Positions 6,002-46,126 of a stretch of DNA of 56,268 nt are shown one piece after another (the first letter of the stretch is position 1; each line of letters begins with the position of its first letter). The translations under genes and the position numbers were made by a program. The DNA lies in NCBI GenBank assembly GCA_029775855.1, contig JARVJZ010000005.1:135817-192084 (forward strand), read 5' to 3'. This DNA is from Nitrososphaeria archaeon (lineage in GTDB: Archaea > Thermoproteota > Nitrososphaeria > Nitrososphaerales > JAAOZN01). A model generated the notes under the pieces. That model made no database searches. It saw only the letters and a program-made list of their open reading frames with translations, and was not told the DNA's origin.

Positions 6002-6199
6002 CTATGGTTGTGTGTAGTGGGTTCTGTTTCTAGTTCGTCTCTGTGTATGGTTCTTAATACTGTTGTGTAGAAGCAACACGGCGAAGATCAATGAATAAGC
6101 GACAAGAACCGCCGACGCTACAAACAGTGCTTATATCCATAGTTGAGGATCTGCTAAAGTGTATGTGCTATTTACATTAGCCAGCTCTTTACCCGCCAT
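6002..6199 (-). pseudogene. possible remnant of a membrane-protein gene
   Basis: Minus frame reads MAGKELANVNSTYTLADPQLWI*ALFVASAVLVAYSLIFAVLLL..., a transmembrane-like stretch broken by an in-frame TAA at 6131-6133. Confidence 0.25.
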
Positions 6200-6241
6200 T
6201 TTACAGTAGCGTTCCAGCAACTTAACCAAACTTAAATCAAT

Positions 6242-7123: not shown

Positions 7124-7132
7124 CTCGCTAAT

Positions 7133-7546
7133 CTAATTTATCTCGTAGCTTGTTGTTATCTTTGATACTCCTCTTAAATTCGCCATAACAGAGCAGTACT
7201 TCTCCTCAGAGAGGCGTATAGCCCTTTTGACAGCGTCTTCGCTTAGGGCATCGCCCTTCAAAATATACTTCAACCTAATTTGCGTGTAGTATTTCGGAGG
7301 CTCTTCAGCTCTGTCGCCATCAGCATGAACTTCAAGTAAAGATAGATTCTGCCGCTGCTTTTTTAAGATATTTATTATGTCTAACGCTGTGCATCCTGCG
7401 AGGGCAACAAGGAGCAGCTTCATCGGCGTGAAGCCTGCGCCTTCTCCACCGAGATCTTTGGGGAGATCCATCGCGACGCTATGCCCCTCTTCATCCAGGC
7501 CTTCAAGTTTAAAGCCTTCTATCATCTTCACCTTGATAGTTGGCAT
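7133..7546 (-). CDS. OsmC family protein (YhfA-like)
   Basis: PMKLLLVALAGC and EKYCSV motifs. Confidence 0.9.
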   Translation of the reverse strand: MPTIKVKMIEGFKLEGLDEEGHSVAMDLPKDLGGEGAGFTPMKLLLVALAGCTALDIINILKKQRQNLSLLEVHADGDRAEEPPKYYTQIRLKYILKGDALSEDAVKRAIRLSEEKYCSVMANLRGVSKITTSYEIN

Positions 7547-7652
7547 AACTTTGAGGTTTTTGGAAATCTATAAAAGACTATCGAAGACAACCTTAAAAGC
7601 AGTTTAGGCGCTAAACTAATGTGGATAGCATCATTTGGTGTAGGCGAGAAGC

Positions 7653-28075: not shown

Positions 28076-28432
28076 CTAAACACCTTCGATGCTCCTCTTT
28101 AGAGATATGACACCATCCTTCAGCTGCAACTCATAGATCTCATTCACTTCAAACCTTATACCAAGCATTTCATACTCCGTTTCAGAGAGGAAGAGTGTAA
28201 GCTTAGGGAGAACAAGCTGAGGCATAGCTGGGAAGAAACCCATAGACTGAAACTGACTGATAATATTCTTAATAAGCCTAGATTCGTCCTCCCTTGCACC
28301 ATAAACTCCAAATTGAGCCCTGGGTCTGACCTCAACAAGCTCGATCTGTTTCCCAGGCTGCCCAGTGTCTGGATCTGTTATCGACATAATCTTGTTCACT
28401 CTAACTTTAGGATATACGGACATACCAATCAC
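28076..28432 (-). CDS. arcadin-1-like protein
   Basis: DP.T..PGKQIELVE...QFQSMG...PKLTLFLSE.EYEMLG..FEVN..YEL pattern recalled from arcadin-1 homologues. Confidence 0.6.
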   Translation of the reverse strand: MIGMSVYPKVRVNKIMSITDPDTGQPGKQIELVEVRPRAQFGVYGAREDESRLIKNIISQFQSMGFFPAMPQLVLPKLTLFLSETEYEMLGIRFEVNEIYELQLKDGVISLKRSIEGV

Positions 28433-28449
28433 ACCAGCATACTATTCTG

Positions 28450-29640
28450 CTATAAGATTAACTTATTGGAGTTCATACGAAGGTTCTCCCTATTGACAGC
28501 GTATGCGAAGAGCATAACAACCAAAGCGAACCAGGGTTCAAAGAATCTAGGCACCAGCAGAAGACCTATATTCATAGCTAAGAAGGTTAAGAGGTCTCCC
28601 TTCTTCTTACACATTAAAGCGAAGTAGGGTAGCGCCGAGTTAAAGAAGTATTTGTATGTGCCTCTTGGGAAGAGTAGTATAAAGAGGAGCTGAGAGTATA
28701 GAAGGTAGCGTATGAGGGCGTCGGCATCCCAGCCTCTGATTCTTAGGAAAAGAAGCGTCAAAACGATGAAAACAGCCGAGATTATGTAGATTAGATGCTG
28801 CTTCAAGAAGATAGCCAGCCAAGGTGCACCGAAAACACCAAATATTGTGCCTAAGTTAGTGGGTTTAATGATATTATACTCCCAAACAGTCAGATCCTCA
28901 GGTACATAAGGTTGAGGCGTAGGTAAGCCCGGGAAACCTAGAGCCCAAAGATAAAGCGATGGAAATAGTGCAAGGTAAGGCATAGAACCTACCACAACTA
29001 TCGCCGCAAAGATCGCTATAAACCACAAAAGGGCTCTTTTCGATTTGAACCAATATGCAGCAATAATAAAGATAGGTAGAGATGCTAATGCGGTCTGTTT
29101 ATAGAGAGAGGCTAAAGCGAGAGAGGCTGCTGAAATCTTTACCCTCTTTGACACAAGCAGATAAGTTGAGAGGAGTAGGAAGAAGGTTGAAGGCGGAGGA
29201 TTTAACCAGAGCATAGAATTATACCAAAGAGATGCTGGCGATAGTGCTGTAGCTAAGCCTATTGCAATAGCCCACTTCCCACCAACCATCTTACGCGCAA
29301 TAAGGTAAACCATAAGCGGAATAAGAGCATCAAACAACAGTAGAGGCACAGCAGCACTCCAATAAGATGGATTAATCTTAACAAAGGCTGACAAGGTGTA
29401 TATCCACAGCGGCGGATAGGCGTTGTGAAAATCTTTGTAGAGCATCTCACCATCTAGAAACCGTTTAACATCGTTAAGGTAGAGGTGCTTATAATCTTGA
29501 TAAGGCTCAAGATACTCTGGCATAGGTGGAAAATTCCCCTCAATAACTGTAGCAAACCAAGCGACTAGGCACCTAACTATGAGAGAAACCAGAAGGACAA
29601 CAAGAAAACCCTTTGAATGCTTAACGGCATCTATGCTCAA
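28450..29640 (-). CDS. GT-C membrane glycosyltransferase (GT87/DUF2029-like)
   Basis: LYKDFHNAYPPL luminal motif, LYKQ, many TM helices. Confidence 0.75.
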   Translation of the reverse strand: MSIDAVKHSKGFLVVLLVSLIVRCLVAWFATVIEGNFPPMPEYLEPYQDYKHLYLNDVKRFLDGEMLYKDFHNAYPPLWIYTLSAFVKINPSYWSAAVPLLLFDALIPLMVYLIARKMVGGKWAIAIGLATALSPASLWYNSMLWLNPPPSTFFLLLSTYLLVSKRVKISAASLALASLYKQTALASLPIFIIAAYWFKSKRALLWFIAIFAAIVVVGSMPYLALFPSLYLWALGFPGLPTPQPYVPEDLTVWEYNIIKPTNLGTIFGVFGAPWLAIFLKQHLIYIISAVFIVLTLLFLRIRGWDADALIRYLLYSQLLFILLFPRGTYKYFFNSALPYFALMCKKKGDLLTFLAMNIGLLLVPRFFEPWFALVVMLFAYAVNRENLRMNSNKLIL

Positions 29641-29740
29641 CTATCCCAACGCACCTAACAAGCGAGAAAAACAGTTAGAAGATGTTGATAAACTTAAATA
29701 ACAAGTTTGAGCATACACTTTTTGCAGGGTGTAAGTATAG

Positions 29741-30607
29741 ATGATTCCTAGAAGTTTTGAATATCTACGCCCATCAACGCTACAAGAAGCGGTTCAACTT
29801 CTTGACAAATACGAAGAATCAAAGATACTGGCAGGCGGACAAAGCCTCATCGCATTAATGAAACTAAGATTAGCATCACCAAAATACATCATAGACATAA
29901 CAAGGATACCTGGACTATCATATGTAAAGGAGGAGGGCAACAAGATTCTGATAGGTCCATTAACAACCCACGACACAGTAGAAAACTCACCCATAATACG
30001 CAATAAGTGTCCCATCCTCTCTGAGGCAGCTAGTAGAATAGGTGACCAGCAGATAAGAAACAGGGGAACAATCGCAGGCACACTATGCCACGCCGACCCC
30101 TCAGCAGATGTGCCGACAACCTTCTTAGCACTCGACGGCGAAGTTGTAGCAATGGGTAAAGATGGTGAGAGGGTGATAAAGGCGAAGGACTTCTTCCAAG
30201 ACTTCTTTACAACAGCCCTCAACCCAAATGAAGTAGTTAAAGAGGTGAGAGTTCCAGTGCTTCCACCTAAGACAGGAACAGCATACATAAAGCACGCTAG
30301 GAGGGAAGGAGACTTCGCTATAGTAGCAGTAGCTGCAATAATAACTCTGGATGAAAATAATGTTTGTAAGTCTGCTTCGATATCATTAGGTTCAGTAGGA
30401 CCAACGCCGCTTAGAGCAGTAGAAGTTGAGAATGCGTTGGTAGGTAAGAAGCTCACCGATGAAGTAATAGTTGCTGCATCTGAACTGGCTGATAGAGGCA
30501 TAAGCCCGCCTTCAGACATACATGGAAGCGCTGAATACCGCGCTGAAATGGCTAAAGTCTTCACTAAGAGGGCTATAAGGCTGGCTCTGAGTAGAATAGG
30601 AGGTTGA
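29741..30607 (+). CDS. xanthine dehydrogenase family FAD subunit (CoxM/CutM-like)
   Basis: [16 protein letters not shown]...[13 protein letters not shown]. Confidence 0.92.
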
Positions 30608-30611
30608 GAAG

Positions 30612-31088
30612 ATGGCTGAAAAGAGAAGGATTAAGCTAACAGTAAATGGTGTAGAGATGGAGGGCGAAGCCGAACCAAGAACCCTACTTGTTCACTTCAT
30701 CAGGGACACACTTGGTCTAACAGGCACCCACATAGGATGCGACACAGGACACTGCGGATGCTGCACCATAATAATGAATGGGGTATCTGTCAAATCATGT
30801 ATGGTGTTAGCGTATCAAGCCGAAGGCGCAGACATACTGACTATAGAGGGGCTCGCTAAGGATGGGAAGCTGCATCCAATCCAAGAAGCTTTTTGGGAGA
30901 ATCATGGTCTACAATGCGGCTACTGCACACCAGGTCAAATAATGTCAGCATACTTCCTGTTGAGTAGAAACCCGAAGCCAACAGAGGAAGAGATTAGGAG
31001 AGGTTTAGAAGGAAACTACTGTAGATGCACAGGCTATGTTAACATAATCAAGTCAGTTAAAGCCGCGGCAGAAAAGATGTCCAAGTGA
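30612..31088 (+). CDS. xanthine dehydrogenase family 2Fe-2S subunit (CoxS/CutS-like)
   Basis: [24 protein letters not shown]. Confidence 0.93.
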
Positions 31089-31097
31089 AGGCGGTAT

Positions 31098-33530
31098 GTG
31101 ATGACTGAGGCGCTATTATCAAAAGAGATACCAGTGCCGCGTAAATGGGTAGGCACACCTATCAAGGCAAAAGAGTTCCCAAGACTTATAACAGGTCAAG
31201 GCAGATATGTAGATGACATCAAGATACCCAATATGCTCTACGCTGCGCTACTACGCAGCCCATATGCACACGCCAAAATTAAGCGCATAGACACATCCAA
31301 AGCTGAAAAACTCCCTGGAGTCGTAGCAATAGTCACTCAAGAAGATGTCTTAAAATACTGCAAACCCTACCCACAAATAGTACCTCCGCCAGCAGATAAG
31401 CTGCTTGACTACTGTATAGCTGTGGATAAAGTTAGGTTTGCTGGTGAGCCTGTTGCTGCAGTAGCGGCGACAGAGCGGGCAATCGCTGAGGATGCTTGCG
31501 AGCTTATAGAAGTTGAATACGAGCCTCTTCCACCGGTTATGGATGCTGAAGAAGCGCTTAAGCCAGATGCTCCTCTAGTACACGAAGAAGTGGGGACAAA
31601 TCTTGTGTGGCACGAAGTCTTTGATTATGGTGATGTAGACAAGGCTTTCGCTGAAGCTGATAAAGTCATTAGCTTGAAGCTTCACCACCACCGCTACGGT
31701 GGTGCACCTACTGAGACACACGCTGTTGTTGCTGATTACGATAAAGGCACAGGTGTGCTCACAATCTACTGCAACAATCAGATGCCGATGTTCTGCATGG
31801 CTCTAATAGGATTATCATTCAACATGCCAACAGACAAGATTCGCATCATAACCCCAGATATAGGTGGAGGCTTCGGCTCAAAGATACTCTCATACACCTA
31901 CATGATGCTGATCAGCATACTAGCCATGAAAGCTGGTAGGCCAGTAAAGTGGATGGAAGACCGAAGGGAGAACCTAGCATCAGGCACACACTGCAACGAG
32001 GCAACCTTCTATGTAGAAGCAGCTGTAAAGAAGGATGGCACGATACTAGGCATAAAGGCTAAGACCCTACACGATGTTGGAGCCTACCTAAGGTATGAGC
32101 CAGTAGGCGCACTCCTATGGATTCAAGTTTCAAGCGGACCATATAGGTTTAAGAACCTGAGAATGGATGTCAACGCCATAGTTACCAACAAAGGGCCTGT
32201 GGCTCCGATTAGAGGATACGGTAGAATTCAGCACCTCTGGATGCTGGAGAGGACGGTTGAGCAAGTAGCTAGGCAACTCGGCTTAGATCCGATTGAAGTG
32301 AAGCTTAAGAACTATGTCAGACCAGAAGAGATGCCTTATGTCTCCCCAAGCGGCGCAACATACGATTCAGGAGACTATCCAACTGCGCTAAAGAAGGCGC
32401 TGCAGATGATCAACTACGACGAATGGAGGAGGAAGCAGCCTGAGCTTTGGAGGCAAGGTAGGTTTGTAGGCATAGGCGCAGCGCTGTTCCAAGACTCTGG
32501 AACCAACAACTTCGCTCAGGTTAGGTTGATCTACAAGAACAACCCCTTCTCAGGGAACAGCAGGATGGCTGAGATGTGGATGGATGAGTTCGGAAGGATA
32601 ATAGTTGCTGTTGGCTCGAACCCGCATGGGCAATGCCACGAAACCGTGGTAAGCCAAGTAGTTGCTGATGTCTTCGGTGTGACACCTGATGATGTGTTTG
32701 TGGTTCCTGGGTTTGACTCTTGGGTGCACGGTTGGACTGGGCATTCAGGCAGCTACGCCAGCCAATTCGCGGTCTCTGGGATAGGTGCTGTCTTGGGTGC
32801 CGCCAAGAGGCTTAGAGAGAAGATAGCAACTATAGCTGCGCATATGCTGAAGGCTAAGCCTGAAGACCTTGAGTTTAAGGAGGGTAAGGTATGTGTTAAG
32901 GGCACAGATAGATGTGTAGCGTTCTGGCAAGTTGCAAACCTAGCGTACAGAAACAACCTTGAGCTACCTGAAGGAGTAGAACCTGGTCTAAGGGTAATCT
33001 ACACGTGGAAGGCGCCGTTTAAGCTCCCAGACTTAGAGAAGAAGACGGTTAACGCCACATTAACCTATTCTTATCAAGCACACGCGTGTGTAGTTGAAGT
33101 AGATCCTGAGACTGGGAAGGTGAAGATACTGGATTACGCTGTTGTAGATGATTGCGGAGTCCCGATAAATCCACATATAGTTGAGGGGCAGGTGCACGGC
33201 TCAACTATGAACGGCATCGCAGCTGCACTCTTCGAAGAATATGTTTACAGCAAGGATACTGGTCAACTTCTAGCTTCAACATTTATGGACTACCTCTTCC
33301 CCACAGCCCTTGAGATACCCGATATCAAAGTTGACCATATGATTTCTCCATCGCCCTTTACAGAGCTTGGGACTAAGGGTGTAGGGGAAGGCTCGCTTGT
33401 GCCGTTGGGTTCGATAGCTGGCGCCATAGAGGATGCGTTGTCTCCTCTAGGGGTCGTCATAACCGACTCACATAATCCTCCTGAGAGGATCTATAGGATG
33501 ATAAAGGAGGCTCAAAAGAAGCGCAAATAA
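31098..33530 (+). CDS. xanthine dehydrogenase family molybdopterin subunit (CoxL-like, not form I CODH)
   Basis: RSPYAHA, GGGFGSK, PIRGYGR active-site loop, EGQVHG, KGVGEG. Confidence 0.9.
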   Translation: MMTEALLSKEIPVPRKWVGTPIKAKEFPRLITGQGRYVDDIKIPNMLYAALLRSPYAHAKIKRIDTSKAEKLPGVVAIVTQEDVLKYCKPYPQIVPPPADKLLDYCIAVDKVRFAGEPVAAVAATERAIAEDACELIEVEYEPLPPVMDAEEALKPDAPLVHEEVGTNLVWHEVFDYGDVDKAFAEADKVISLKLHHHRYGGAPTETHAVVADYDKGTGVLTIYCNNQMPMFCMALIGLSFNMPTDKIRIITPDIGGGFGSKILSYTYMMLISILAMKAGRPVKWMEDRRENLASGTHCNEATFYVEAAVKKDGTILGIKAKTLHDVGAYLRYEPVGALLWIQVSSGPYRFKNLRMDVNAIVTNKGPVAPIRGYGRIQHLWMLERTVEQVARQLGLDPIEVKLKNYVRPEEMPYVSPSGATYDSGDYPTALKKALQMINYDEWRRKQPELWRQGRFVGIGAALFQDSGTNNFAQVRLIYKNNPFSGNSRMAEMWMDEFGRIIVAVGSNPHGQCHETVVSQVVADVFGVTPDDVFVVPGFDSWVHGWTGHSGSYASQFAVSGIGAVLGAAKRLREKIATIAAHMLKAKPEDLEFKEGKVCVKGTDRCVAFWQVANLAYRNNLELPEGVEPGLRVIYTWKAPFKLPDLEKKTVNATLTYSYQAHACVVEVDPETGKVKILDYAVVDDCGVPINPHIVEGQVHGSTMNGIAAALFEEYVYSKDTGQLLASTFMDYLFPTALEIPDIKVDHMISPSPFTELGTKGVGEGSLVPLGSIAGAIEDALSPLGVVITDSHNPPERIYRMIKEAQKKRK

Positions 33531-35379: not shown

Positions 35380-36366
35380 CTATTTCCCCTTCTTACCTTG
35401 CTGCGCCAAATCCTTACCTAGTTGAACCAACTCCGCCAGTAGGGCAGTAAGTTGTATTTCCGGGTTAGCACCCACGATAAGTCTGTAGTCATATTTGGCT
35501 ATCGACTCAGCTATCTTATCGAGGTTAGGGGGATTCAACCTACTTATCTCCTCAAATGCGTATTTTAAGAAGTCTTGTTCAGACATACCATAGACCCTTG
35601 TTAACTCGAGCATTTTCCCTCTGGCGGCGTTAAAGTCTCCATTTAACGCCTGCCTTACAATTTCAGAGACAAGGGCTTTGCTCGATATGCCAGCAACACG
35701 TTCAACGTTTTCTACGCTGATTTCACCTGTTGCCGCTGTAGTCTGTAGTATGTTTATGGCGTGCCTAAGGTCTCCTTCGCTTATCTTGTATATTAGCGCA
35801 AGCGCATCCTCTTGATACTTTTTTATACCTTCTGACTTGCAAATATATGCCAAGTGGTTAACCACATCCTTCTCCTCCAGCTTCTGGAATCTGAATATGG
35901 CGGTTCTGCTCTGTATAGGTTCTATTATGCCGGAGCTGTAGTTGCATATCAGTATGAATCGGCATATCCTTGAACTCTCCTCCATTATACGCCTTAACGC
36001 TGTCTGAGCATCATTAGTCATTTCATCAGCTTCATCAAGTATGATTATTCTAAATGGAATGTCAGCGGCGCCCACACTATAGCTGGCAAAGATCTTAATA
36101 CGCTCCCTAACTGTCTGAATCCCTCTTTCATCTGAAGCATTAAGCTCAAGCGTATAATCCCTCCAATAATCCTTCAACACAGCTCTTGCAACGCAAAGAG
36201 CAGCGGTAGTCTTACCAGTTCCAGGGGGGCCTGCGAAGAGTAGATGAGGCATTTCAGAAGGTGCTTTAATTAACTCCTTTAACCCTGATACGACGTGCCT
36301 CTGATTAACGATTTCATCAAGGTTAGCGGGTCTATACTTCTCAACCCACATTAGAGACTGCAACAC
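35380..36366 (-). CDS. rfcS: replication factor C small subunit
   Basis: WVEKYRP, GPPGTGKTT, LNASDERG, LDEAD, IQSR. Confidence 0.96.
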   Translation of the reverse strand: MLQSLMWVEKYRPANLDEIVNQRHVVSGLKELIKAPSEMPHLLFAGPPGTGKTTAALCVARAVLKDYWRDYTLELNASDERGIQTVRERIKIFASYSVGAADIPFRIIILDEADEMTNDAQTALRRIMEESSRICRFILICNYSSGIIEPIQSRTAIFRFQKLEEKDVVNHLAYICKSEGIKKYQEDALALIYKISEGDLRHAINILQTTAATGEISVENVERVAGISSKALVSEIVRQALNGDFNAARGKMLELTRVYGMSEQDFLKYAFEEISRLNPPNLDKIAESIAKYDYRLIVGANPEIQLTALLAELVQLGKDLAQQGKKGK

Positions 36367-36436
36367 ACGCTCAGAAAGCCTAGAAGGCTTTAGGATATAA
36401 AGTGTTACTAAAAAGAAAAGAAAGAGAGGGAAATGG

Positions 36437-36973
36437 TTATGGTTTACCTAATGTCTTTTTCCCTGGACGCCACTCAGCTGGGCAGAGTTCACCTGTCTTT
36501 AGAGCCTGTAGTGTTCTTAGGGTTTCGTCCACACTTCTCCCGATGTTCATATCGTTTACAACAACATGTCTTACTATGCCCTCTGGATCGATGATGAAGG
36601 TCGCTCTGAAGGCGCTGCCATCCTCTTCGTTCAGCACACCATACGCTCTGCTTATGGCTAGGGTGGTGTCAGCTATTATTGGGAAGTTGGCTTTCTTGAT
36701 TCTTTCGTCAGTTTCATACCAAGCCTTGTGCGAGAAGAAGCTGTCTGTGCTGGCTCCGAGCACTACTGCATTCTCCTTCTTGAATTCTGGTTCAAGGTCT
36801 GCGAAGCGCTCTATCTCCGTTGGGCAGACGAAGGTGAAGTCCCTAGGGTAGAAGAAGAGTATAACCCATTTCCCGCGGTAGTCAGAGAGTCGAATCTTCT
36901 TCGGTTTGTCCGAGTCTCTTTCATATACTTCGGCTATGAAGTCAGGTGCTACACTTCTCACTTTTAGACACAT
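36437..36973 (-). CDS. ahpC: typical 2-Cys peroxiredoxin (AhpC)
   Basis: FYPRDFTFVCPTE and LCPAEW. Confidence 0.93.
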   Translation of the reverse strand: MCLKVRSVAPDFIAEVYERDSDKPKKIRLSDYRGKWVILFFYPRDFTFVCPTEIERFADLEPEFKKENAVVLGASTDSFFSHKAWYETDERIKKANFPIIADTTLAISRAYGVLNEEDGSAFRATFIIDPEGIVRHVVVNDMNIGRSVDETLRTLQALKTGELCPAEWRPGKKTLGKP

Positions 36974-37090
36974 AGAAGGTCATGTTAAATTGCGGCATAC
37001 AAATATTTTAACGTTGGTGTAACGGAACCTTAATTCTTCCAACCACTCTACAATATTAAAGGTTACCGCAAATTTTCTAATATTAATTTA

Positions 37091-37155
37091 TGTTAATCGA
37101 TTTTAACAAAGTTTTATTAGCGTAAATGACGCTTATATTCGATAAATTTATAAGC
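37091..37155. promoter_or_regulatory. two inverted repeats and a TATA box upstream of the membrane protein/trpB2 operon
   Basis: TGTTAA-N6-TTAACA (37091-37108) and GCTTATA-N11-TATAAGC (37131-37155), the latter overlapping TTTATAAG (37147-37154). Confidence 0.45.
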
Positions 37156-38541
37156 AACCCAAATTTTACTATGGGACGACCTAATATGATGCCTCCGTTA
37201 AAAATATGGCAACCTTGGAGAGGCATCCTAACCCTTATCGTCGTCGTCGCTATGGGAATCATAACATTCTGGCTCACCTTCATAACACCAGGCCCAATGG
37301 GTCCCAGTGGCCCTATGAACTGGATAGGATATGTTTCGGAGTATAATATGGCCTTGGTTCTACACTTAGTCTTCCTTCTATTCTTCCTAGGAGGATGGAT
37401 AGGTCAGAGGTTCGGCTGGGGCTTAAGGAGCCTCGTCAACCTAGTTGTGCTACTAATCCTCATGCTCGTGACCTTCATAATCTTCAGGTTCACTGTTGGC
37501 CCAACCTTTCCTTGGATGCTCTTCTACGAGATCAATACGTTGAATGTCTTCCTAATTATGGCGCTGATGTTCAATAACTGGCCTCTGCATAAAGTTAGGC
37601 AGCCGTATCAAGGTATAGGGCTCTTAGTGATAGGGTTTGTGGTGAGCAGCATACTCTATGTGGTATTACACAACTATACACCATTCTACCAGCAAGCAGC
37701 AGGTCTGCCACCTGAAGTCGCTGCGGCGCTTGTGCCCGCTGGAACCGACATTGCGGCGCTGAACCCTAACGGGGTTATGGATGCGTTTGTTATGGCTACC
37801 CTTAACACCATGTTCATCCTCTTCGTCTGCATCTTCTACTTCCTCTTCGACCTATGGCCCTTTAGGCTTCTTAAGAAGCAGCCTTGGATAGGCATCTCAG
37901 CCACAGCAGCTGCTGTGATAATCAGCTTAGTCGTCTGGAATGTTGCGTTAATCGTTGTGCCTCAGATCCACCAGGTCGACATGTCTCTTATGAAGGCTGC
38001 TGGGTTCGCGCCTCCCGATGTTCCTGATGTCTTGCCGCTAGCTGCTCTTCCTCCAGCTGTTCAAGAGAATATCACGATGCTGCTTATGTTAGGTGGATTC
38101 GAAGGTAATCTGATCTGGGGTACTCTAGTCTGGGCTGCGATCTTCATGTGGTGGCCTACACTTCTATTCACTAGGGGTGGTAGGGCTCCGTTCAATAGGC
38201 AGCCTGTGAAGGGCTTCATTCTACTCGCCTTAACGATAATAACAGCATTCATAGCGTTTCAATTGCTGCATTGGTATGGATTGTATTTAGCTCCTCCTCA
38301 AGCTTGGATGGTCCCTAACCTCATACCACCACCTTACCTAATCTACCTATGGCTCGTAATTTCTTGGCTTCCAGGTCTTTCAGTCTACACCGTGTTATAT
38401 GCTGTTGCCTTAGAGTCTTGGCCTCAACCTCTGCTGCCTCCACCACCACCAGATGTGCACACCTACCTAATCGGTAAGCAACCCATTATCATGAGTTCGA
38501 AGGAGGAGTTGAAGAACAGATATGTTAGGATGGAGGGATAG
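37126..38541 (+). CDS. polytopic membrane protein with internal WP...QP..G repeats, probable transporter
   Basis: About 12 hydrophobic segments; repeated NWPLHKVRQPYQG, LWPFRLLKKQPWIG, WWP...RQPVKG, SWPQP. True start probably 37171 or 37186. Confidence 0.7.
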   Translation: MTLIFDKFISNPNFTMGRPNMMPPLKIWQPWRGILTLIVVVAMGIITFWLTFITPGPMGPSGPMNWIGYVSEYNMALVLHLVFLLFFLGGWIGQRFGWGLRSLVNLVVLLILMLVTFIIFRFTVGPTFPWMLFYEINTLNVFLIMALMFNNWPLHKVRQPYQGIGLLVIGFVVSSILYVVLHNYTPFYQQAAGLPPEVAAALVPAGTDIAALNPNGVMDAFVMATLNTMFILFVCIFYFLFDLWPFRLLKKQPWIGISATAAAVIISLVVWNVALIVVPQIHQVDMSLMKAAGFAPPDVPDVLPLAALPPAVQENITMLLMLGGFEGNLIWGTLVWAAIFMWWPTLLFTRGGRAPFNRQPVKGFILLALTIITAFIAFQLLHWYGLYLAPPQAWMVPNLIPPPYLIYLWLVISWLPGLSVYTVLYAVALESWPQPLLPPPPPDVHTYLIGKQPIIMSSKEELKNRYVRMEG

Positions 38542-38543
38542 AT

Positions 38544-39851
38544 ATGGTTGAAAAGAGGACTCATAAGATAATATTACCAACACAAGAGATGCCGAAGGCT
38601 TGGCTCAACCCAACACCCATCTTAGCGAAGATGAAGAAGGAGCCTCCTAAACCAAAGAACCCTGAGAAGGCTGATAGAGTTGCGGAGATGGAGAAGTATT
38701 GGGCTCCATCGCTTCTCGCAATCGAGAAGTCTGATGCCGCTGAAATACCTATCCCAACAGCAGTAATGAACTTACTTATATGGGCTGGGAGACCTACACC
38801 GCTACAAAGAGCCTACAGACTGGAGCAAGCACTCAACACGCCAGCAAAGATCTTCTACAAGAGGGAGGACATACAATATGCAACAACAGGCAAAACCAAC
38901 ATAGCTATACCCCAAGCATATTATGCTGCTAAAGATGGATTTAAGAGGCTTGTAGCAGGAGGAGGGGCGCAGTGGGGTACGGCTGCCTCGATAGCTGCAA
39001 GGTACCAAGACCTTCCGCTAGATGTCTATATGCCTAGGGAGAGCCTAGAGTCCAAGGAGCCTCACCGCGTAGTCATGAATGTTAACGCTGCTACTGTTCA
39101 CGGCTCGCCTTCACAAGACACAGAGGTTGGTAAGCAGATGGCTAAAGAAGATCCGAATGGCTCTATTGCGACAGCCTTCTCAGAAGCTGTTGAAGCCGCG
39201 TCTAAGAATGATGGTGCTGCGGCCATATTCGGAAACTTCTACAATACACCGATAGTCTTTCAATCTATAGCTGGGTTGGAGGCGGCTGCTCAGCTTAAGA
39301 TGGCTGGTGTGTATCCTGATGTTGTAATAGGTTCAATCGAAGGCTTCCTAGGCTTGGCACTACCGTTTATAGCAGATGTTGCAGATGGTAGGAAGACAGG
39401 GACAAAGTTTATCGTCGCTGGCTCTAAGTATGTGCCTTCGCTGACCGAGGGTAAGATTGAATTCGACTACCCAGATTACGCGGGGTTGATGCCGCTCTAC
39501 AGATTCCACACATTAGGCTGTAAGCGCACCATACCCTTGATACATGCTGGTGAGCTGAGATACCACGGCGTTTCACCAATATTGAGCACTCTTGTGGAAT
39601 CTGGTTTAGTTACTCCAAAGATGTATGGGCAGACCGAGCTCTATGAGAGCGGCACCATCTTCTGCAGGAACCAAGGCGTAATACCTTCACACGAAGCGCA
39701 GTATGCGATTAAAGCAGCTATAGATGAGGCTCTACAGGCAAAATCTGAGGGGAAAGAGAAGGTCATACTCTTCAACCTCTCAGGACACACCATGCTTGAG
39801 CATAAAGGGTACTTAGAGTACATAATTCAGAAGAAGTTAGAGTTGCCTTGA
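38544..39851 (+). CDS. degenerate TrpB2-like PLP-fold protein
   Basis: RPTPLQRAYRLE, QWG, IHAGELRYHG, FNLSGH are TrpB2-like, but the GSHK, ETGAG and GGGSN motifs are altered. Confidence 0.85.
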   Translation: MVEKRTHKIILPTQEMPKAWLNPTPILAKMKKEPPKPKNPEKADRVAEMEKYWAPSLLAIEKSDAAEIPIPTAVMNLLIWAGRPTPLQRAYRLEQALNTPAKIFYKREDIQYATTGKTNIAIPQAYYAAKDGFKRLVAGGGAQWGTAASIAARYQDLPLDVYMPRESLESKEPHRVVMNVNAATVHGSPSQDTEVGKQMAKEDPNGSIATAFSEAVEAASKNDGAAAIFGNFYNTPIVFQSIAGLEAAAQLKMAGVYPDVVIGSIEGFLGLALPFIADVADGRKTGTKFIVAGSKYVPSLTEGKIEFDYPDYAGLMPLYRFHTLGCKRTIPLIHAGELRYHGVSPILSTLVESGLVTPKMYGQTELYESGTIFCRNQGVIPSHEAQYAIKAAIDEALQAKSEGKEKVILFNLSGHTMLEHKGYLEYIIQKKLELP

Positions 39852-39858
39852 AAAGGAG

Positions 39859-41277
39859 GTGAGAAAAAGGTTGGAATCTAAAGAAGAAAAGAGGATTGAG
39901 AAGGCGAAGCAAGTATTCGAATCAGCGAAGGAAAAGTTCGAACCCAAAAGCGTAATAAGAGTAGACCTACCAGAAGACGAACTACCAACATCCTGGTATA
40001 ACATAAACGCAGACCTACATAAATGCGGCATGAAGACACCCTTCCCAACCGGGCCTGGGTTAGCGATATTACCTAAGATCTTCCCACCCTCTCTCCTAGC
40101 GCAAGAGCTATCACACGACCGCTGGATCAAGATACCAGACGAGCTGCTTGAATACTACAAGATCTGGCGCCCCACACCACTACATCGGGCGAAGAGGCTT
40201 GAAGAGTTCCTAAAGACGCCTTGCAGAATCTACTATAAGCAGGAGTATGTGAGCCCACCTGGAAGCCACAAGCCGAACACAGCTATAGCGCAAGCGTACT
40301 TCAACAAGAAGGATGGCTATGAAGGGCTTGCAACAGAGACCGGAGCAGGTCAATGGGGTTCTGCATTAAGCTTCTCAGGCGCCTTGACCGGCTTAAAGGT
40401 CGATGTATTCATGGTTAGGGTCTCCTACTACCAGAAGCCAGGTAGGCGTGTGCTTATGGAGTCTTGGGGTGCGAGGTGTGTTCCATCTCCTTCTGTGCCC
40501 CCAGAGAGGGTCTATCCTGATATGGCAACTGAGTTCGCAAAGAAGGTCTTGGAGAAGGATCCAGATAGCCCAGGTTCACTGGGTATCGCGATATCTGAGG
40601 CTATAGAGCATGCGTTGAAGAAGCCCTATCCAATAAACTACTCTCTTGGTAGTGTTTTGAACCACGTGCTTATGCACCAGACCATAATTGGATTGGAGGC
40701 GAAGAAGCAGTTCGAACTCATCGACGAGTATCCGGATGTGCTCTTTGGATGCACAGGAGGGGGCTCAAACTACTCTGGCTTCACCTTCCCCTTCACCCAA
40801 GACAAGCTTGACGGCAAAAAACCTGACTTGAGGTTCGTGGCAGCCGAAGCTGAGTCTTGCCCAAGATACACCAAACCCAAGTATATTGGCTACGACTATG
40901 GCGACACAGCTGGCATGACACCTATGATATGGATGTATACACTTGGACACGACTTTGTGCCCCCTCGAATTCACGCCGGTGGGTTAAGGTATCACGGTAA
41001 TGCGCCTCAGCTCTGCACATTGGTCTACAAGAAGGTGCATGAAGTCGTCGCCATACCTCAGACCGAAATCTTCCAAGCCGGTCAGATCTTGTCTCAGACA
41101 GAAGGGTTCCTTAGTGCTCCAGAGACGCTCCACGCTTGGGCTGCTTTGATAAGAGAAGCTAGGAGATGCAAAGAGACTGGGGAGAAGAAGGTACTCGCCC
41201 TTAATGATAGCGGCCACGGTTGGTTGGATGTAAGAGGATACGACGAGTTTCTCAAGAAGAAGCTTGAGGTGGCTTAG
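39859..41277 (+). CDS. trpB2: TrpB2-type tryptophan synthase beta chain
   Basis: GSHKPNTA, TETGAGQWG, GGGSN, IHAGGLRYHG, SGHG. Confidence 0.93.
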   Translation: MRKRLESKEEKRIEKAKQVFESAKEKFEPKSVIRVDLPEDELPTSWYNINADLHKCGMKTPFPTGPGLAILPKIFPPSLLAQELSHDRWIKIPDELLEYYKIWRPTPLHRAKRLEEFLKTPCRIYYKQEYVSPPGSHKPNTAIAQAYFNKKDGYEGLATETGAGQWGSALSFSGALTGLKVDVFMVRVSYYQKPGRRVLMESWGARCVPSPSVPPERVYPDMATEFAKKVLEKDPDSPGSLGIAISEAIEHALKKPYPINYSLGSVLNHVLMHQTIIGLEAKKQFELIDEYPDVLFGCTGGGSNYSGFTFPFTQDKLDGKKPDLRFVAAEAESCPRYTKPKYIGYDYGDTAGMTPMIWMYTLGHDFVPPRIHAGGLRYHGNAPQLCTLVYKKVHEVVAIPQTEIFQAGQILSQTEGFLSAPETLHAWAALIREARRCKETGEKKVLALNDSGHGWLDVRGYDEFLKKKLEVA

Positions 41278-42044
41278 CCACCCTCACCTTTATTTTTTAA
41301 GCTTAGGTATCTTAGGGTGTTTTCGAATATTATGCTGCGCATATCCTCGAAGTCTAGTCTATGTAGTGTTGATAGGGTGTAGACGACGCTCGGTATGAAT
41401 GCTGGCAAAGCCGGCTTGTTTTGGAAGGCTGCGCCGAAGGAGACCGGACCATCTGTTTCGGTTAAAATTGATGTAGGTGGGGTGCTTAAGGCTAGGCGTT
41501 GGATCTTCTTCGAGTAGACGGTTGATGGGCCGTATGAGATGAAGTAGCCTCGCTCACAAGCTTCTTTCAGCTGCTGTGGTGTCCCAGCGAACCAGTGTAG
41601 CAGCACATTTCGTAGATTATATGTGCTGAGAGTAGCGAGGACATCGTCTACACTGCTTCTTGAGTGTATCGAAAGGGGTTTCTGAAGACGCTCAGCCAAT
41701 TTAAGCATAGATTCAAAGACCTCTTTTTGCCTCTTATATTCAACTTCATCCTTCGCGTATTTTCTATCTAAACCAACTTCACCTATACCAGCGAGGTTGG
41801 AGGGGTCTAAAACTGCTCTAAGAGAATCAGCATCTTCGCTCTGCGCTGACCAGGGATGCACACCTCCAAACGCTCTAACTGTTCCCCCAGCTTTGGCTTC
41901 GAGCTCTAGGTTTAGCTTAGAAGTTATGGCGTCAACAGCGACCGCAATCAGAATCTTGCTAGTAGCTTTAGCCTCTAAGAGGATTTGGTGTAAGAGACTC
42001 TTTAGTTCTGGGTCAGAGAGGTGGATATGCGCATCAGCGAACAT
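41274..42044 (-). CDS. tatD: TatD family hydrolase
   Basis: DAHIH, GVHPW, IGEVGLD, IHSR, LHWF, ETDGP. Confidence 0.92.
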   Translation of the reverse strand: MFADAHIHLSDPELKSLLHQILLEAKATSKILIAVAVDAITSKLNLELEAKAGGTVRAFGGVHPWSAQSEDADSLRAVLDPSNLAGIGEVGLDRKYAKDEVEYKRQKEVFESMLKLAERLQKPLSIHSRSSVDDVLATLSTYNLRNVLLHWFAGTPQQLKEACERGYFISYGPSTVYSKKIQRLALSTPPTSILTETDGPVSFGAAFQNKPALPAFIPSVVYTLSTLHRLDFEDMRSIIFENTLRYLSLKNKGEGG

Positions 42045-42111
42045 AGTTTAATCTACTTTGCTAAGCTATTTAGCCTTAGAGTTAAATACTCGAGATTAAG
42101 ATTTAGCTAAT

Positions 42112-42339
42112 GTGATGGGTATGTCTGAGCAAGAGCTCGGTTTGGCTGCGGTCTACAGGCTCATAAAGAAAGGTGGCGCTGAGAGGGTTAGTGATGAAGC
42201 AGCTGAGGAGCTAAGAGTTATTCTAGAGGAGTTGGCGGTTAAGATAGCTCAATACGCTGTTGAGTTGGCAGAGCACGCTGGTAGAAAGACGGTTAGAGCG
42301 ATTGACATAAGGCTCGCGTCAAAGAACATTCTCAGATAA
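42112..42339 (+). CDS. archaeal histone
   Basis: RLIKKGGAERVS.EA, HAGRKTVRAIDI. Start likely ATG 42121. Confidence 0.95.
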   Translation: MMGMSEQELGLAAVYRLIKKGGAERVSDEAAEELRVILEELAVKIAQYAVELAEHAGRKTVRAIDIRLASKNILR

Positions 42340-42344
42340 CCGTT

Positions 42345-43208
42345 TCAAATAGACACTAAGGCGATTCCTAAAGCTATAGCCATACACCCCAATATGAGCG
42401 CTGGTGTCAGACGCTCCTTAAGTAGTAGAGTTGCTAAAAACACGGTCATAAAAGGGTAAGAATTCGAAACTGGCAGAACTATTACTATAGGTGCATTTTC
42501 AAGAGCGTGTATAAGCGCTATCGAACCAACAGCATTAAAAAAGCCTGATAAAGCGTAGAAGAAAGCTGCCCTCTTAGGGACGCTACGCACATCAGGAGGC
42601 TTCTTAAATGCAGTCATAAGCAGAAGATAAAGAGCTAGGCTGAAGATAAAAGATAACATAGCGCCTTCAGCTGCGTGTCCACCTGCATCTAGACCTACTC
42701 TCATCAACACTGGAAAGAGTGTGAAGCCAAACATCGCTAAAAGTGCATATAGAAAACCTCTACTCGAACTGGAAGTTGTAGCCTCTCCCTTTATAACAGT
42801 CAAAATTCCTAATGTTACTAGAACCATCCCAGATAAGATACCGAGTGAGATTTCCTCTTGAAAGAGTGGGACAGAGATCGCTGCTGCGAGAAAGGGTCTG
42901 AGAACATTCACCATAGTAGTTCTACCAGCGCCGATAGTGTTTATAGCAGCATAGTAGCTCAGATACCCTACAACACCACCAAATATTGATGCAGCGAAAA
43001 AAGATAGCAGCACAATCGGCTTTAAGGTCAAAACCTGTTGAGTGGCAAGAAAGTATAGTACGGTAAAGAAGATCGATGAAAACCTGTCTACCACATAGCC
43101 GCTTAGCGTCTTACCTCCGTGAACACGCGCTTTAGCCATAGAGAGAGCGCCTAAGGCCCAAGCGAGAGAACATGTTAACGCTAGTATGACGCCGATGGTT
43201 GTGTTCAA
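42345..43208 (-). CDS. DMT/EamA family transporter
   Basis: 10 TM in two repeats; P..A......F.E and P.......LLKE motifs. Confidence 0.85.
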   Translation of the reverse strand: MNTTIGVILALTCSLAWALGALSMAKARVHGGKTLSGYVVDRFSSIFFTVLYFLATQQVLTLKPIVLLSFFAASIFGGVVGYLSYYAAINTIGAGRTTMVNVLRPFLAAAISVPLFQEEISLGILSGMVLVTLGILTVIKGEATTSSSSRGFLYALLAMFGFTLFPVLMRVGLDAGGHAAEGAMLSFIFSLALYLLLMTAFKKPPDVRSVPKRAAFFYALSGFFNAVGSIALIHALENAPIVIVLPVSNSYPFMTVFLATLLLKERLTPALILGCMAIALGIALVSI

Positions 43209-43259: not shown

Positions 43260-44072
43260 CTAGGTTATGTAGCTAGGTCCGCTGCGCATATCATACTCTA
43301 GCTCGAGGCTTCTAACCAGGCTTGTTAAAGCAGAGTCTTGAGCGACTTCCTTATCTAGGGTCTCTTTTAACCTCTTTGCTTCATTCTCTAGCTCCGTTAG
43401 GTTAAACTTTGTGTTCAGAAGGTCTGAGAGCCTTCTAAGTAGGTGGAGGCTTGTGTTCGCATCTGTGTGCGCTATGTATTGCGGGACATGCCCCCATAGG
43501 CTTGCTCCAAGTATGCCTTTTTTACGCAGTTCTGTAAGGAGATAGGTGTAGAGGCTGGCTGGTCCTTCATAGTCTATCATCTTAAGATTCTTGCTTGTTA
43601 AAAGAGGTGCTAATGATGGATCATTCACTACCGCGGAGATTAAGGGTGGGCGTGTATGAGGAACTCTATCGAGGAGCCCTCCAAGCGCATAGCAGAATTT
43701 CACACCAAGTTTAGATGATATATCCACAATCTCCCGCACATATTTAGCCCACCTTAGGTGAGGCTCAACTCCAGTAAGTAAGATTAAATCTATATTTATG
43801 CCGCTCTCTTTCCCTATTAGGTAGTAAAGTTCGTTGGTGGCGAACTTTAAATCCTCTATGACGCCCAGATTTATTGCTGTAGTTGGGCGTTCTATGTTGA
43901 AGGTGTAGTATTCATCTGGGTCTATCGAGGCAAACTTGGTCATTTTAAGCGCTCTAATAAGGTAGCGTGTTGAATGTGAGGCAACTAATCCTGCGTCTGT
44001 CCATCCGGCTAATCCTACAATCAAGTAGGGTGATGATAGGGTTGGTAGCTCGGTGTAGATTATGCTCGTCAT
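43260..44072 (-). CDS. PAC2 family (proteasome assembly chaperone-like) protein
   Basis: GWTDAG, EPHLRW, VPHTRP, YEGP, LWGHVPQY. Confidence 0.85.
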   Translation of the reverse strand: MTSIIYTELPTLSSPYLIVGLAGWTDAGLVASHSTRYLIRALKMTKFASIDPDEYYTFNIERPTTAINLGVIEDLKFATNELYYLIGKESGINIDLILLTGVEPHLRWAKYVREIVDISSKLGVKFCYALGGLLDRVPHTRPPLISAVVNDPSLAPLLTSKNLKMIDYEGPASLYTYLLTELRKKGILGASLWGHVPQYIAHTDANTSLHLLRRLSDLLNTKFNLTELENEAKRLKETLDKEVAQDSALTSLVRSLELEYDMRSGPSYIT

Positions 44073-44121
44073 CTTCAGCCTATCTTATTGACATAAGGGC
44101 TCCTTAAACTTACCTTTCAAC

Positions 44122-45282
44122 TTAAAGTGCTTGGAACTTTTCAGACCAGCTTATGTAGGCGTTCACCATCTCTTTTGAGACGCTGGATTTTCTGCTTCGA
44201 AGTATCTCCTTAAAGTCTGCAAGAGTTATCTCCCTAGGTTGGGCTGATTTATCGCTTGCTTTACCGCTTTCAAAGAGCTCAACAACCACTCGGATCTGGG
44301 CGGCTTGGCATATATCTCTGATGTCGCTTCCAGTGTAGCCTTCCGTATATTTCGCCAGCTCTTCGAGCTTAAGTGAGGGATCAATCTTAAGAGGCGCGGT
44401 ATAGTAGCGGAACATGCTTATTCTAGCGGCAGTATCAGGGAGGGGTATGAAGATCCGCTTCTGAAACCTTCTTATGAACGGCCAATCTAGAGACCAAGGT
44501 TTGTTAGTTGCGCCTATGATGTAGAGGTGTAGATACTTACCTTTATCCGCTATACCATCCATTTCTTTAAGGAACTGGTTTCTAACTCTTACTTCACCAC
44601 CAACTTCTTGGTTTCTCGTTCCAAGCAGCGAATCTAACTCATCTATGAAAATGATAACAGGAGTGTTATCTTTTTCAATTATGCTCCTCGCTGTAGAGAA
44701 GAGGCGTTCAACATTCTTCTCAGCCTCACCAAGCCACTTCGACATAATGGATGCAGCATCAACCGTCATAAAAGTAGCGTTAATTTCAGCAGCAGCCGCA
44801 GCAGCCAACATGGTTTTGCCGCAGCCTGGCGGCCCATAGAGTAGTATCCCTCTAGGCCAACCTAGTGGGAAGAGGTCTGGTCTCTGAACTGGGAAGATTA
44901 TGCTTTCTTTTATGGCTTGTTTTGCTTGGTCTAAGCCTATGACTTCATCCCAACTTACTTTTGGTTTTTCATGTAGTACTAGGTCGTTGTAGGTTGCTTT
45001 GAGTGATTCCACTACTTTTGGCGTTGATTTACGGTGTTCTGATTCATCTTGGCTATCATCTAACCCTTGTAGAGCCTTTATTCTTTCTTGGTAGGCTTTT
45101 GCGCGTTCGATATATAGTTTGTTGAGATTGTAGTCTGGGTAGATCTTGGCTAGTGTGATGAGTGTCTGTATGGCCTTCTGATACATTTGTATAGCCATTC
45201 CTCTAGAGCCTTGTGAATCCAGTCTAATTGCTTCTGCTGCATATCTTCTTGCCGCTTCTTCAAGCTCTTGTGCTGCAGACAA
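44122..45282 (-). CDS. cdvC: CdvC / Vps4 AAA ATPase
   Basis: N-terminal MIT domain, FPLGWPRGILLYGPPGCGKT, EVGGEVRVRNQFLKEMDG, RRFQKR. Confidence 0.95.
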   Translation of the reverse strand: MSAAQELEEAARRYAAEAIRLDSQGSRGMAIQMYQKAIQTLITLAKIYPDYNLNKLYIERAKAYQERIKALQGLDDSQDESEHRKSTPKVVESLKATYNDLVLHEKPKVSWDEVIGLDQAKQAIKESIIFPVQRPDLFPLGWPRGILLYGPPGCGKTMLAAAAAAEINATFMTVDAASIMSKWLGEAEKNVERLFSTARSIIEKDNTPVIIFIDELDSLLGTRNQEVGGEVRVRNQFLKEMDGIADKGKYLHLYIIGATNKPWSLDWPFIRRFQKRIFIPLPDTAARISMFRYYTAPLKIDPSLKLEELAKYTEGYTGSDIRDICQAAQIRVVVELFESGKASDKSAQPREITLADFKEILRSRKSSVSKEMVNAYISWSEKFQAL

Positions 45283-45283
45283 C

Positions 45284-46126
45284 CTATGCCACCTCTGGGG
45301 CTAACTTTATACTGCTCTCTTCACTTATCATCTTCAGAGCGACTTCCTCGACTAGGTCTATGGGTAGATTCAGCACCACCGAAGCCTCGATTATATTATA
45401 TTCACCTCTCTCTTTGAAGAATCTTCTAACTTTTTCCTCAACCTTACCACTTAGGGTACTGCTATTTGCAGCATAGATTGCATTCTGTGAATCTGTTAGG
45501 TTTGTAAGGCTTCGCATCTTCTTGAATAAGGAGCGTCCTTTCGCTTGCTGGATAGAGGAAGGTATGGGTTCGTTTATTTCGCTTGCTAAATACAGAGCGT
45601 ATCTTTCAGCGTCTTCAGTAAGCCCATCTACACTGCTGTTAAGGTCGAAGTCGAATCCGCAGGAAAGGTTGCTCAGGTCTGCTAGAGTTTCGGATAGGGT
45701 TCTGGTCGCTTCAGAGGCTATGTTTTCAAGCGCGGGTGTGGGCTCCTCTTTACCGTATATGTGCTTTATTATATCAGCTGCTGAAGACATATGTTTCATC
45801 GCTTCGCTTATATCACGAATACTTTCAAACCGCGTTATTATCTGTGTTAGAGCAACCTCACATAACGAAACAGCATTTATCACCTTCTTTAACTCGCTAC
45901 ATTCATCTGTGAATAGCGTGATCCTAACGGAGTCATCTAGTTCCCTAGCCTTTTCTAGAGCCTCTATTAGATTCTGCATTCTTGCTTCAAGTCTGCTCTT
46001 CAAGATGTGGAGTTGATGCCTACGCTCTTCAATCTTTAAGATAGCAGATCCAAGCCTATCCTTAAGTTCACCACGCCCAAACTTAACGACCTTTCTAAAT
46101 GAACTAAACATACTCACCATCTCCAT
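45284..46126 (-). CDS. cdvB: CdvB-like ESCRT-III protein with C-terminal winged-helix-like domain
   Basis: Snf7-like helical core (ALTQIITRFESIRD) plus C-terminal EEKVRRF..RGEYNI.EAS..LNLP...VEE; directly upstream of cdvC. Confidence 0.72.
   Translation of the reverse strand: MEMVSMFSSFRKVVKFGRGELKDRLGSAILKIEERRHQLHILKSRLEARMQNLIEALEKARELDDSVRITLFTDECSELKKVINAVSLCEVALTQIITRFESIRDISEAMKHMSSAADIIKHIYGKEEPTPALENIASEATRTLSETLADLSNLSCGFDFDLNSSVDGLTEDAERYALYLASEINEPIPSSIQQAKGRSLFKKMRSLTNLTDSQNAIYAANSSTLSGKVEEKVRRFFKERGEYNIIEASVVLNLPIDLVEEVALKMISEESSIKLAPEVA

Follow-up and report, generated by a model that had tools for sequence, protein, structure and literature searches.

A conserved archaeal gene triplet joins a membrane protein to a degenerate and an intact TrpB2

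A stretch of 56,268 nucleotides from a Nitrososphaeria archaeon (assembly GCA_029775855.1, contig JARVJZ010000005.1, positions 135,817 to 192,084 of the forward strand; hereafter the window, meaning this whole stretch) contains three adjacent genes that are inherited together, one encoding a membrane protein and two encoding paralogues of the tryptophan synthase beta chain of the TrpB2 type. The working names MEM for the membrane protein, DEG for the degenerate TrpB2 copy and INT for the intact copy are used throughout. DEG has lost much of the TrpB2 active site in every member of its family and is kept under strong purifying selection. The reading that we tentatively prefer, and to which we give a little under an even chance, is that the triplet is a membrane-associated tryptophan-supply module in which INT would be the catalyst, DEG a non-catalytic partner and MEM the component that delivers or concentrates indole. 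As originally predicted, and as the list of open reading frames (ORFs) bears out, the three genes lie on the same strand with gaps of 2 bp (MEM to DEG) and 7 bp (DEG to INT):

37126-38541, + strand: MEM, 471 aa in the ORF list; the likely start is 37186, as homologues begin at MMPP, which gives 451 aa (37186-38541)
38544-39851, + strand: DEG, 435 aa, TrpB2 paralogue by its match to NF009057 and by alignments to solved TrpB2 chains
39859-41277, + strand: INT, 472 aa, intact TrpB2 of a specialised clade by its NCBIfam matches and motif alignment

Scans with a MEM profile recovered 12 loci, one from species-representative genomes and 11 from metagenomes, with some redundancy among them (L045 is the same contig as L036, the proteins of L044 are identical, and L041 and L046 are near-identical). 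A survey of genomes for the triplet, proposed in the original prediction, finds that it recurs: order and strand of MEM, DEG and INT are identical in 10/10 loci that reach far enough, out of the 12 in total. The two truncated loci end after DEG (L037) and after MEM (L047), and no locus has MEM followed by another gene. L038-L041 and L046 have flanks syntenic with those of the window; the flanks of L042/L043 and of L044 are unrelated to it. Three further linked pairs (P0005/P0124, P0010/P0134 and P0130/P0135) are suggested by contigs of equal size (8405, 4165 and 9423 bp). When eight versions of the locus are compared, the distances for MEM and for DEG nearly coincide (slope 0.99, r 0.99), and both proteins have diverged about 1.55 times as much as INT. 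MEM, DEG and INT are a co-inherited unit of three small, distinct families.

This unit is rare. MEM was found in 0/40 relatives of the window's genome, three of the same genus included, and in 1/401 genomes sampled from its class. A phylum-wide sample of 401 genomes held MEM only in the window's genome, with one other weak match, and in 401 genomes from the class of G041, the second triplet-bearing genome that could be searched, MEM occurred only in G041, with weak partial matches in two others. The weak partial matches to the MEM profile come from G436, G592 and G1077 (E 3e-5 to 7e-4). One of the triplet loci, L036, is labelled Candidatus Hecatellales archaeon.

DEG belongs to the TrpB2 type, scoring 408.4 bits on NF009057 (cut-off 366) and 386.9 bits on TIGR01415, which is below the cut-off of 518.85. 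It is 38% identical to INT, and among solved structures it is closest to the TrpB2 chains 6HUL_B, 4QYS_B and 6HTE_B (E 2e-82 to 1e-77). Three signature motifs are altered in it. The first, GSHK, reads TTGK, with the lysine retained (K117, aligned to the GSHK Lys of 6HUL and 4QYS). Residue and family alignments show that the second, TETGAGQWG, reads AGGGA-QWG, with the Glu gone and one residue deleted, and that the third, GGGSN, reads SIEG---F with a deletion of three residues. A full-length protein that keeps the lysine binding pyridoxal 5'-phosphate (PLP) and carries the TTGK, AGGGAQWG and SIEGF changes had been read from the sequence at the outset, and each of these features is upheld by the alignments to solved TrpB2 chains and to the family. 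The GGGSN loop binds the phosphate of PLP, and the altered positions of these motifs, like the Ser of the SGHG motif, are ones that hold PLP or act in catalysis. The Glu of the ETGAGQWG motif activates indole (PMC12727527; this and the other published sources are cited here from the portions of them that were available).

In a search of 5.8 billion proteins the DEG family comprised 11 further clusters at 89-48% identity, after which sequences at 45% or less are ordinary TrpB2. The active sites of 11 DEG members were compared with those of 43 other TrpB2 proteins, using the 131 columns that are conserved at 95% or more in the latter. DEG keeps 64 of these columns and has replaced 32, a replaced column being one in which at most 1/11 DEG members has the usual residue; the other 35 are mixed. 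The catalytic Glu, present in 43/43 other TrpB2, is G in 8/11 and A in 3/11 DEG members, accompanied by the one-residue loop deletion. The GSN of the phosphate loop is deleted in 11/11 members, the first Gly of the loop has become E, D or N, and an Asp or Glu stands at the former phosphate loop in 10/11. The His before the lysine is G, D or S in the family, and the Ser of the SGHG motif varies among S, E, C, A, Q and N. The PLP lysine itself is invariant in 17/17 aligned DEG-family sequences. At roughly one in three of the replaced sites a new polar or aromatic residue has become fixed, and the changes G114T, T140G, R174H, L229F, V232F, G337E, E377Q, A382S, H387Y and D419E are fixed in 11/11 members. 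The loss of the motifs is not due to chance, because every one of the 11 family members shows the same changes. From these lost motifs we infer that DEG has lost catalysis and is probably a pseudoenzyme.

Selection on the three genes was estimated as omega, the Nei-Gojobori dN/dS ratio, over the eight versions of the locus. For DEG, unsaturated pairs (dS 0.15-0.75) give 0.06-0.12 and pairs further apart give 0.04-0.09, and the DEG frame is open and full length in every locus. A degenerate copy that was unique to this genome and drifting neutrally would have told against the original prediction; what is found is a family of 11 clusters with omega of 0.04-0.12. DEG is kept under strong purifying selection and is not a relic. 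The corresponding values are 0.05-0.10 for MEM and 0.01-0.11 for INT (0.02-0.11 in unsaturated pairs).

INT exceeds the cut-offs of both families, with 601.6 bits on NF009057 (cut-off 366) and 571.8 bits on TIGR01415 (cut-off 518.85). The second copy had been predicted to retain all motifs, and it does so across its clade: GSHK, TETGAGQWG, GGGSN, HAGGLRYHG and SGHG are invariant in 15/15 sequences. This clade consists of nine clusters at 97-73% identity, followed by a gap down to 62% or less. INT carries a K/E-rich N-terminal extension (residues ~5-30) and a nine-residue insert, VPPERVYPD (213-221), and it departs from generic TrpB2 at 14/168 conserved columns, among them three at which Phe is replaced by a smaller residue.

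Phylogenetic analysis recovers DEG and INT each as monophyletic with full support (100/100, ultrafast bootstrap and SH-aLRT, the SH-like approximate likelihood-ratio test) and on long stems of 0.78 and 0.51 changes per column, respectively. INT is nested among ordinary TrpB2 and DEG branches deep, and a mixture-model tree from which two long rows were left out agrees; long-branch artefacts may affect the placement of either clade. Because INT too has a long stem, altered conserved columns, an extension and an insert, both TrpB2 partners are, as judged from sequence, specialised, and not DEG alone. That DEG arose from INT by a recent tandem duplication was considered and rejected, a joint clade of the two failing the approximately unbiased (AU) test at p 0.008. 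A KKLE C-terminus is common to DEG and INT, as is a small indel near the N-terminus when they are set against generic TrpB2, in regions where the alignment is uncertain.

The third member of the unit, MEM, has no match in Pfam or NCBIfam at E <= 0.01. Hydropathy and a positive-inside reading predict ten hydrophobic helices with both ends cytoplasmic, and a structural model built from 28 sequences shows ten long helices and a disordered tail (predicted local distance difference test score, pLDDT, 83.1; predicted template modelling score, pTM, 0.84). An earlier model from 12 sequences had failed (pLDDT 45.8), and the score of 83.1 came with 16 additional rows, 12 of them distant relatives. The helices form five homologous two-helix hairpins: hhalign aligned them with probabilities of 75-96% in 10/10 pairs, compared with 0.1-5.4% in 20/20 pairs of reversed-column controls. 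By this comparison of hairpin profiles with their controls, MEM is a five-fold internal repeat of two-helix hairpins. A cytoplasmic WP motif ends helices 4, 6, 8 and 10, and in distant relatives it also follows helix 2. The protein is composed of 4.4% Trp and 9.5% Pro and ends in a poly-Pro stretch followed by a tail of ~30 residues that is specific to the module.

The search of 5.8 billion proteins placed ten clusters besides its own in the MEM family. Against 1.84 billion representatives, the MEM profile matched one at E <= 1e-30 and 14 weak relatives of 92-387 aa, mostly ~360 aa; a Pfam scan of 11 of these weak relatives assigned none of them to a family. The ~360-aa relatives (P0252-P0265) have the same repeat, the WP motifs and the terminal WP with poly-Pro, and they do without the two long outer loops and the ~30-residue C-terminal tail of MEM. 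The nearest clusters in the ESM Atlas, of 370-403 aa, unnamed and mostly from Thermodesulfobacteriota, possibly belong to the same family as these relatives. A Foldseek search of the model against the PDB gave no match at E <= 0.001 (best E 0.018, with a template modelling score, TM, of 0.17). VIA-align returned generic helical bundles only, with a best Z of 5.4 in the wide search and 5.2 in a second look; the match at Z 5.4 is a de novo barrel of five inner helices, and the others are bundles resembling G-protein-coupled receptors (Z 4-5). These fold searches establish neither a new fold nor a pore, and a role of MEM as an importer is a conjecture.

Two RNA-Seq libraries from one sediment study (X3 and X8) contain contigs that match the locus at 38404-41201 and 37695-40707, respectively, and each contig spans both the MEM/DEG and the DEG/INT junction. 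MEM, DEG and INT are probably co-transcribed. Contigs of these libraries are absent before 37218 and after 41252, and the uncovered part proves nothing. Contigs from a DNA run (X2) cover the entire triplet locus at identities of at least 99%, and the locus is also present in several metagenome runs labelled as hot spring. One X2 contig of low depth (5.2) contains an additional A after 39850, where the DEG stop codon and the DEG-INT spacer lie; the likely cause is strain variation or a mistake in assembly, and the RNA-library contigs do not carry it. A scan of the locus for promoters and terminators gave no signal above shuffled sequences, and Rfam had no match at E <= 1 within 36000-42500 and none at the gathering score in the whole window. 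Upstream of the triplet lies one further feature:

36974-37185, no strand: A+T-rich intergenic region that separates MEM from the divergent peroxiredoxin gene, presumed from a reading of the sequence to be the promoter region

That peroxiredoxin gene flanks the triplet on one side in the window, and a convergent TatD-type gene flanks it on the other. The surroundings differ in other lineages. An NAD-kinase-like gene (PF01513 and PF20143, with no NCBIfam name) follows INT in L043 (12321-13448, +), L044 (9850-10959, +) and L042 (6871-8022, +), and may add a fourth, lineage-specific gene to the unit in two lineages whose flanks are unlike those of the window. Upstream of the triplet and divergent from it, L043 has an IorA gene (TIGR03336, 764 bits; indolepyruvate:ferredoxin oxidoreductase alpha) and a class-V aminotransferase gene (4636-7880, -), and the ORF listing of L042 shows a class-V aminotransferase gene and the start of an IorA gene (1-2299, -). 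In L047 a class-I/II aminotransferase gene (1908-3140, -), accompanied by an acyl-CoA dehydrogenase gene, is divergent upstream of MEM. The IorA and aminotransferase genes in L043, L042 and L047 are of the type found in aromatic amino-acid catabolism.

Both triplet-bearing genomes that could be searched lack much of tryptophan biosynthesis. The window's own genome (1.51 Mb in 6 contigs, 98.4% complete) contains no TrpA (PF00290), IGPS, chorismate-binding enzyme of the trpE type or TrpD, and no TrpB1 above cut-off; the absence of trpA, originally observed for the window, extends to the whole genome. In G041, neither TrpD nor a chorismate-binding enzyme was found, TrpA is represented only by a match of 17.5 bits below cut-off, and INT and DEG are the sole TrpB-type genes. 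Two genomes of the same genus as the window's, G002 and G003, have a trp cluster in which an orthologue of a third TrpB2 of the window's genome adjoins trpA (TIGR00262, 126 bits), trpB2i (TIGR01415, 648 bits) and a TrpY-family gene; G003 alone also has trpD (TIGR01245, 338 bits) and a trpC-like gene, which is below curated cut-offs at E 4e-49. The sites compared are:

8179-12544 of L048 (contig C18 of G003): trp cluster
9120-11673 of L049 (contig C105 of G002): trp cluster
~350.8-352.4 kb of contig C1 of the window's own genome: the syntenic site

The trp cluster was lost or never gained in the window's genome, because trpY, trpB2i, trpA, the trpC-like gene and trpD are all absent at the syntenic site.

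A link between the triplet and a tryptophan regulator is seen in G041. Its single TrpY-family gene (L044 4970-5473, -, on contig C43; NF053754, 190.7 bits, cut-off 180) is divergent from MEM and lies 162 bp upstream of it, and its product is 61% identical to the TrpY-family protein beside the trp cluster of G003. The hexamer of a putative TRP box occurs once in the trpY-MEM spacer of L044 and in 0/9 other upstream regions, and being so short it is not counted as evidence. There is no TrpY in the window's genome and none beside the triplet in L042/L043. The TrpY of M. thermautotrophicus acts, in the presence of Trp, as a repressor of the trp operon divergent from it (PMC6737238). Two findings lend strength to a link between the triplet and tryptophan supply, namely the absence of trpA, trpC, trpD and trpE and the neighbouring TrpY gene in another lineage.

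In the tentatively preferred reading, the module would supply tryptophan in archaea that have no de novo pathway. INT would condense indole with L-serine or O-phosphoserine, a reaction that is established for its family. DEG, non-catalytic and most likely PLP-free, would support INT structurally or regulate it, either in a heterodimer or as an adaptor. At the membrane end, MEM would deliver or concentrate membrane-soluble indole, or else anchor the enzyme pair. Candidates for docking are the elements unique to the module, namely the tail of MEM, the N-terminal helix of INT and DEG itself. A stronger form of this proposal, which we regard as quite doubtful, is a new kind of tryptophan synthase complex in which MEM and a cofactor-less DEG replace the alpha subunit. 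Indole, taken up by MEM out of the bilayer or from the exterior, would reach DEG, and DEG, docked on MEM, would pass it through a remodelled aromatic pocket to INT within a DEG-INT heterodimer, with a tryptophan switch through TrpY where that regulator is present.

Several observations weigh against a module of this kind. Indole crosses membranes unaided, so that an importer is not obviously needed, and the Pfam, NCBIfam and fold searches found no recognisable transporter features in MEM. The window's genome has its third, ordinary TrpB2, which could salvage indole alone and leaves the need for the module unexplained. Pathway loss does not by itself call for the triplet, because 9/40 relatives are without TrpA above cut-off and all nine lack MEM. 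The size of G041 is 1.1 Mb and its completeness is not stated. The RNA-library contigs cannot prove a single transcript, as DNA carry-over is possible. In DEG, the invariant lysine and the fixed new residues (G114T, R174H, G337E, E377Q, A382S, H387Y, L229F and V232F) would suit a dead site and equally one remodelled for binding or catalysis. Finally, TrpY adjoins the triplet in 1/3 sub-clades only, and TrpY homologues are not always trp regulators, that of T. kodakarensis not regulating trp genes (PMC6737238).

Other explanations have been weighed. The three genes could be co-regulated and not physically coupled, MEM being an independent transporter (of tryptophan, indole, serine or a related compound), INT an ordinary salvage enzyme and DEG a soluble ligand-binding regulator such as a sensor of tryptophan or indole. 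The operon and the tryptophan context count in favour of such an arrangement too, and the broader MEM family, of ~360 aa and without the C-terminal tail, includes 14 weak profile matches that lie outside the triplet family. In addition, six TrpB2-invariant positions of DEG have become Phe or Tyr (P112Y, L229F, V232F, L233F, M321F and H387Y) and could form a pocket for an aromatic ligand. However, all three families have an equally narrow distribution, MEM and DEG have diverged in lock-step, and the long stem and clade-specific inserts of INT suggest adaptation to partners; this is suggestive only, as linked genes co-diverge in any case. On balance an uncoupled set appears unlikely, though it deserves serious consideration. 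Alternatively, DEG may have been neo-functionalised into an enzyme or a carrier whose active site is rebuilt and which, together with INT and MEM, makes or processes a compound other than Trp, for example a beta-substituted amino acid from a membrane-derived nucleophile. The invariance of the lysine, an omega as low as 0.04 and the fixation of replaced sites to polar residues (T114, H174, E337, Q377, S382, H383, Y387 and T416) all agree with this, as do the altered conserved columns of INT, with the three that have exchanged Phe for smaller residues, and the aminotransferase and IorA genes upstream in two other lineages. Yet, to our knowledge, every PLP enzyme of fold-type II uses a Gly-rich loop for the cofactor phosphate, and in DEG that loop is deleted and mostly replaced by an acidic residue; the position pairing with the pyridine N is free to vary, and the TrpY gene, like the absence of the trp pathway, speaks for tryptophan itself. 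This reading seems improbable to us, if not negligibly so.

An explanation in which DEG is a functionless, decaying duplicate in an accidental neighbourhood can be all but set aside. Motif loss, taken alone, is what would be expected of such a gene, but the frame is open and full length in every locus, omega is far below neutrality, the same derived residues are found in 11 clusters down to 48% identity, and the gene order is kept across unrelated flanks.

The original prediction had also called the system undescribed, and the triplet is indeed a conserved unit for which the literature search, with subscription journals largely outside it and absence from print not established, found no description of the trio, of a prokaryotic TrpB pseudoenzyme or of a membrane partner of TrpB2. 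One of the closest known systems is the stand-alone TrpB2 (TrpB2_o and TrpB2_a; 4QYS, 6HTE and 6HUL), with which INT and DEG share their type by NCBIfam and INT all motifs. The classes of TrpB2 are defined by position relative to trp operons, and trpB2 genes occur outside them, as does the lone trpB2 of P. horikoshii, which has no other trp gene; some genomes keep TrpB2 without other trp genes, and it had been suggested that TrpB2 has another function, of an unidentified kind (PMC1854888). A paralogue without a cofactor site, or a membrane partner, is not described in the available portions of those sources. INT, moreover, forms its own clade with an extension and an insert, and DEG fails TIGR01415.

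Another parallel is the TSB-like pseudoenzyme of plants, which is likewise a TrpB paralogue without the Glu that activates indole (Ala stands in its place in plants, Gly or Ala in DEG) and is kept by selection as a non-catalytic partner, as proposed for DEG (PMC12727527). As far as the accessible text of that study describes it, the plant protein derives from canonical TSB, has two key residues changed with most of the site kept, and was purified with PLP in the buffers; it activates TrpA (TSA), so that free indole is released (PMC12727527). DEG, in contrast, is of the TrpB2 type, has lost the whole phosphate loop and 32 invariant positions, and has an intact TrpB2 and a membrane protein as neighbours in a genome that has no TrpA. 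Pairs such as PDX1.2/PDX1 and the AdoMetDC prozyme also set a deficient paralogue beside or together with an active counterpart (10.1101/717082; PMC6221367). According to the sections of these reports at hand, they are eukaryotic and soluble, and their hetero-complexes have been shown experimentally, whereas the triplet includes a membrane protein and contacts among its products are conjectural. With the TrpY-trp operon of M. thermautotrophicus, the triplet in G041 (L044) shares a TrpY-family gene divergent from its putative target genes; the operon there is trpEGCFBAD instead of MEM-DEG-INT, as given in the available part of that source, and the window's genome has no TrpY (PMC6737238).

Other features of the window lie apart from the triplet. 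A large array of clustered regularly interspaced short palindromic repeats (CRISPR) occupies at least positions 1-5700, with a 24-nt repeat in at least 93 copies at a spacing of 60-67 nt; no ORF of 82 aa or more occurs before 6242, and the G+C content is ~39% in this region compared with 44-49% elsewhere. The stretches 28076-33530 and 43260-46126 hold an arcadin-1 gene, a PAC2 gene and a molybdenum hydroxylase of the CoxL/M/S type that has CoxG immediately upstream of the region. They also hold an AAA ATPase beside two ORFs without a family, and these three may be of the Cdv type.

Taken together, the finding may join two things that are known separately, salvage based on TrpB2 and the pairing of an enzyme with a dead paralogue, to a membrane component of a new kind. 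It brings to light an unannotated family of five-hairpin membrane proteins that has bacterial relatives and no matching solved structure. If the preferred reading is true, the triplet would be a prokaryotic, TrpA-independent counterpart to the TSB-like pseudoenzyme of plants, within the literature searched. TrpB is widely used as a scaffold for engineering, and natural partners that regulate it or deliver its substrate may be of practical interest. Ultimately, the module would give a concrete setting to the long-standing puzzle of TrpB2, namely the scavenging of a precursor at the membrane by archaea with reduced genomes in hot springs and sediments.

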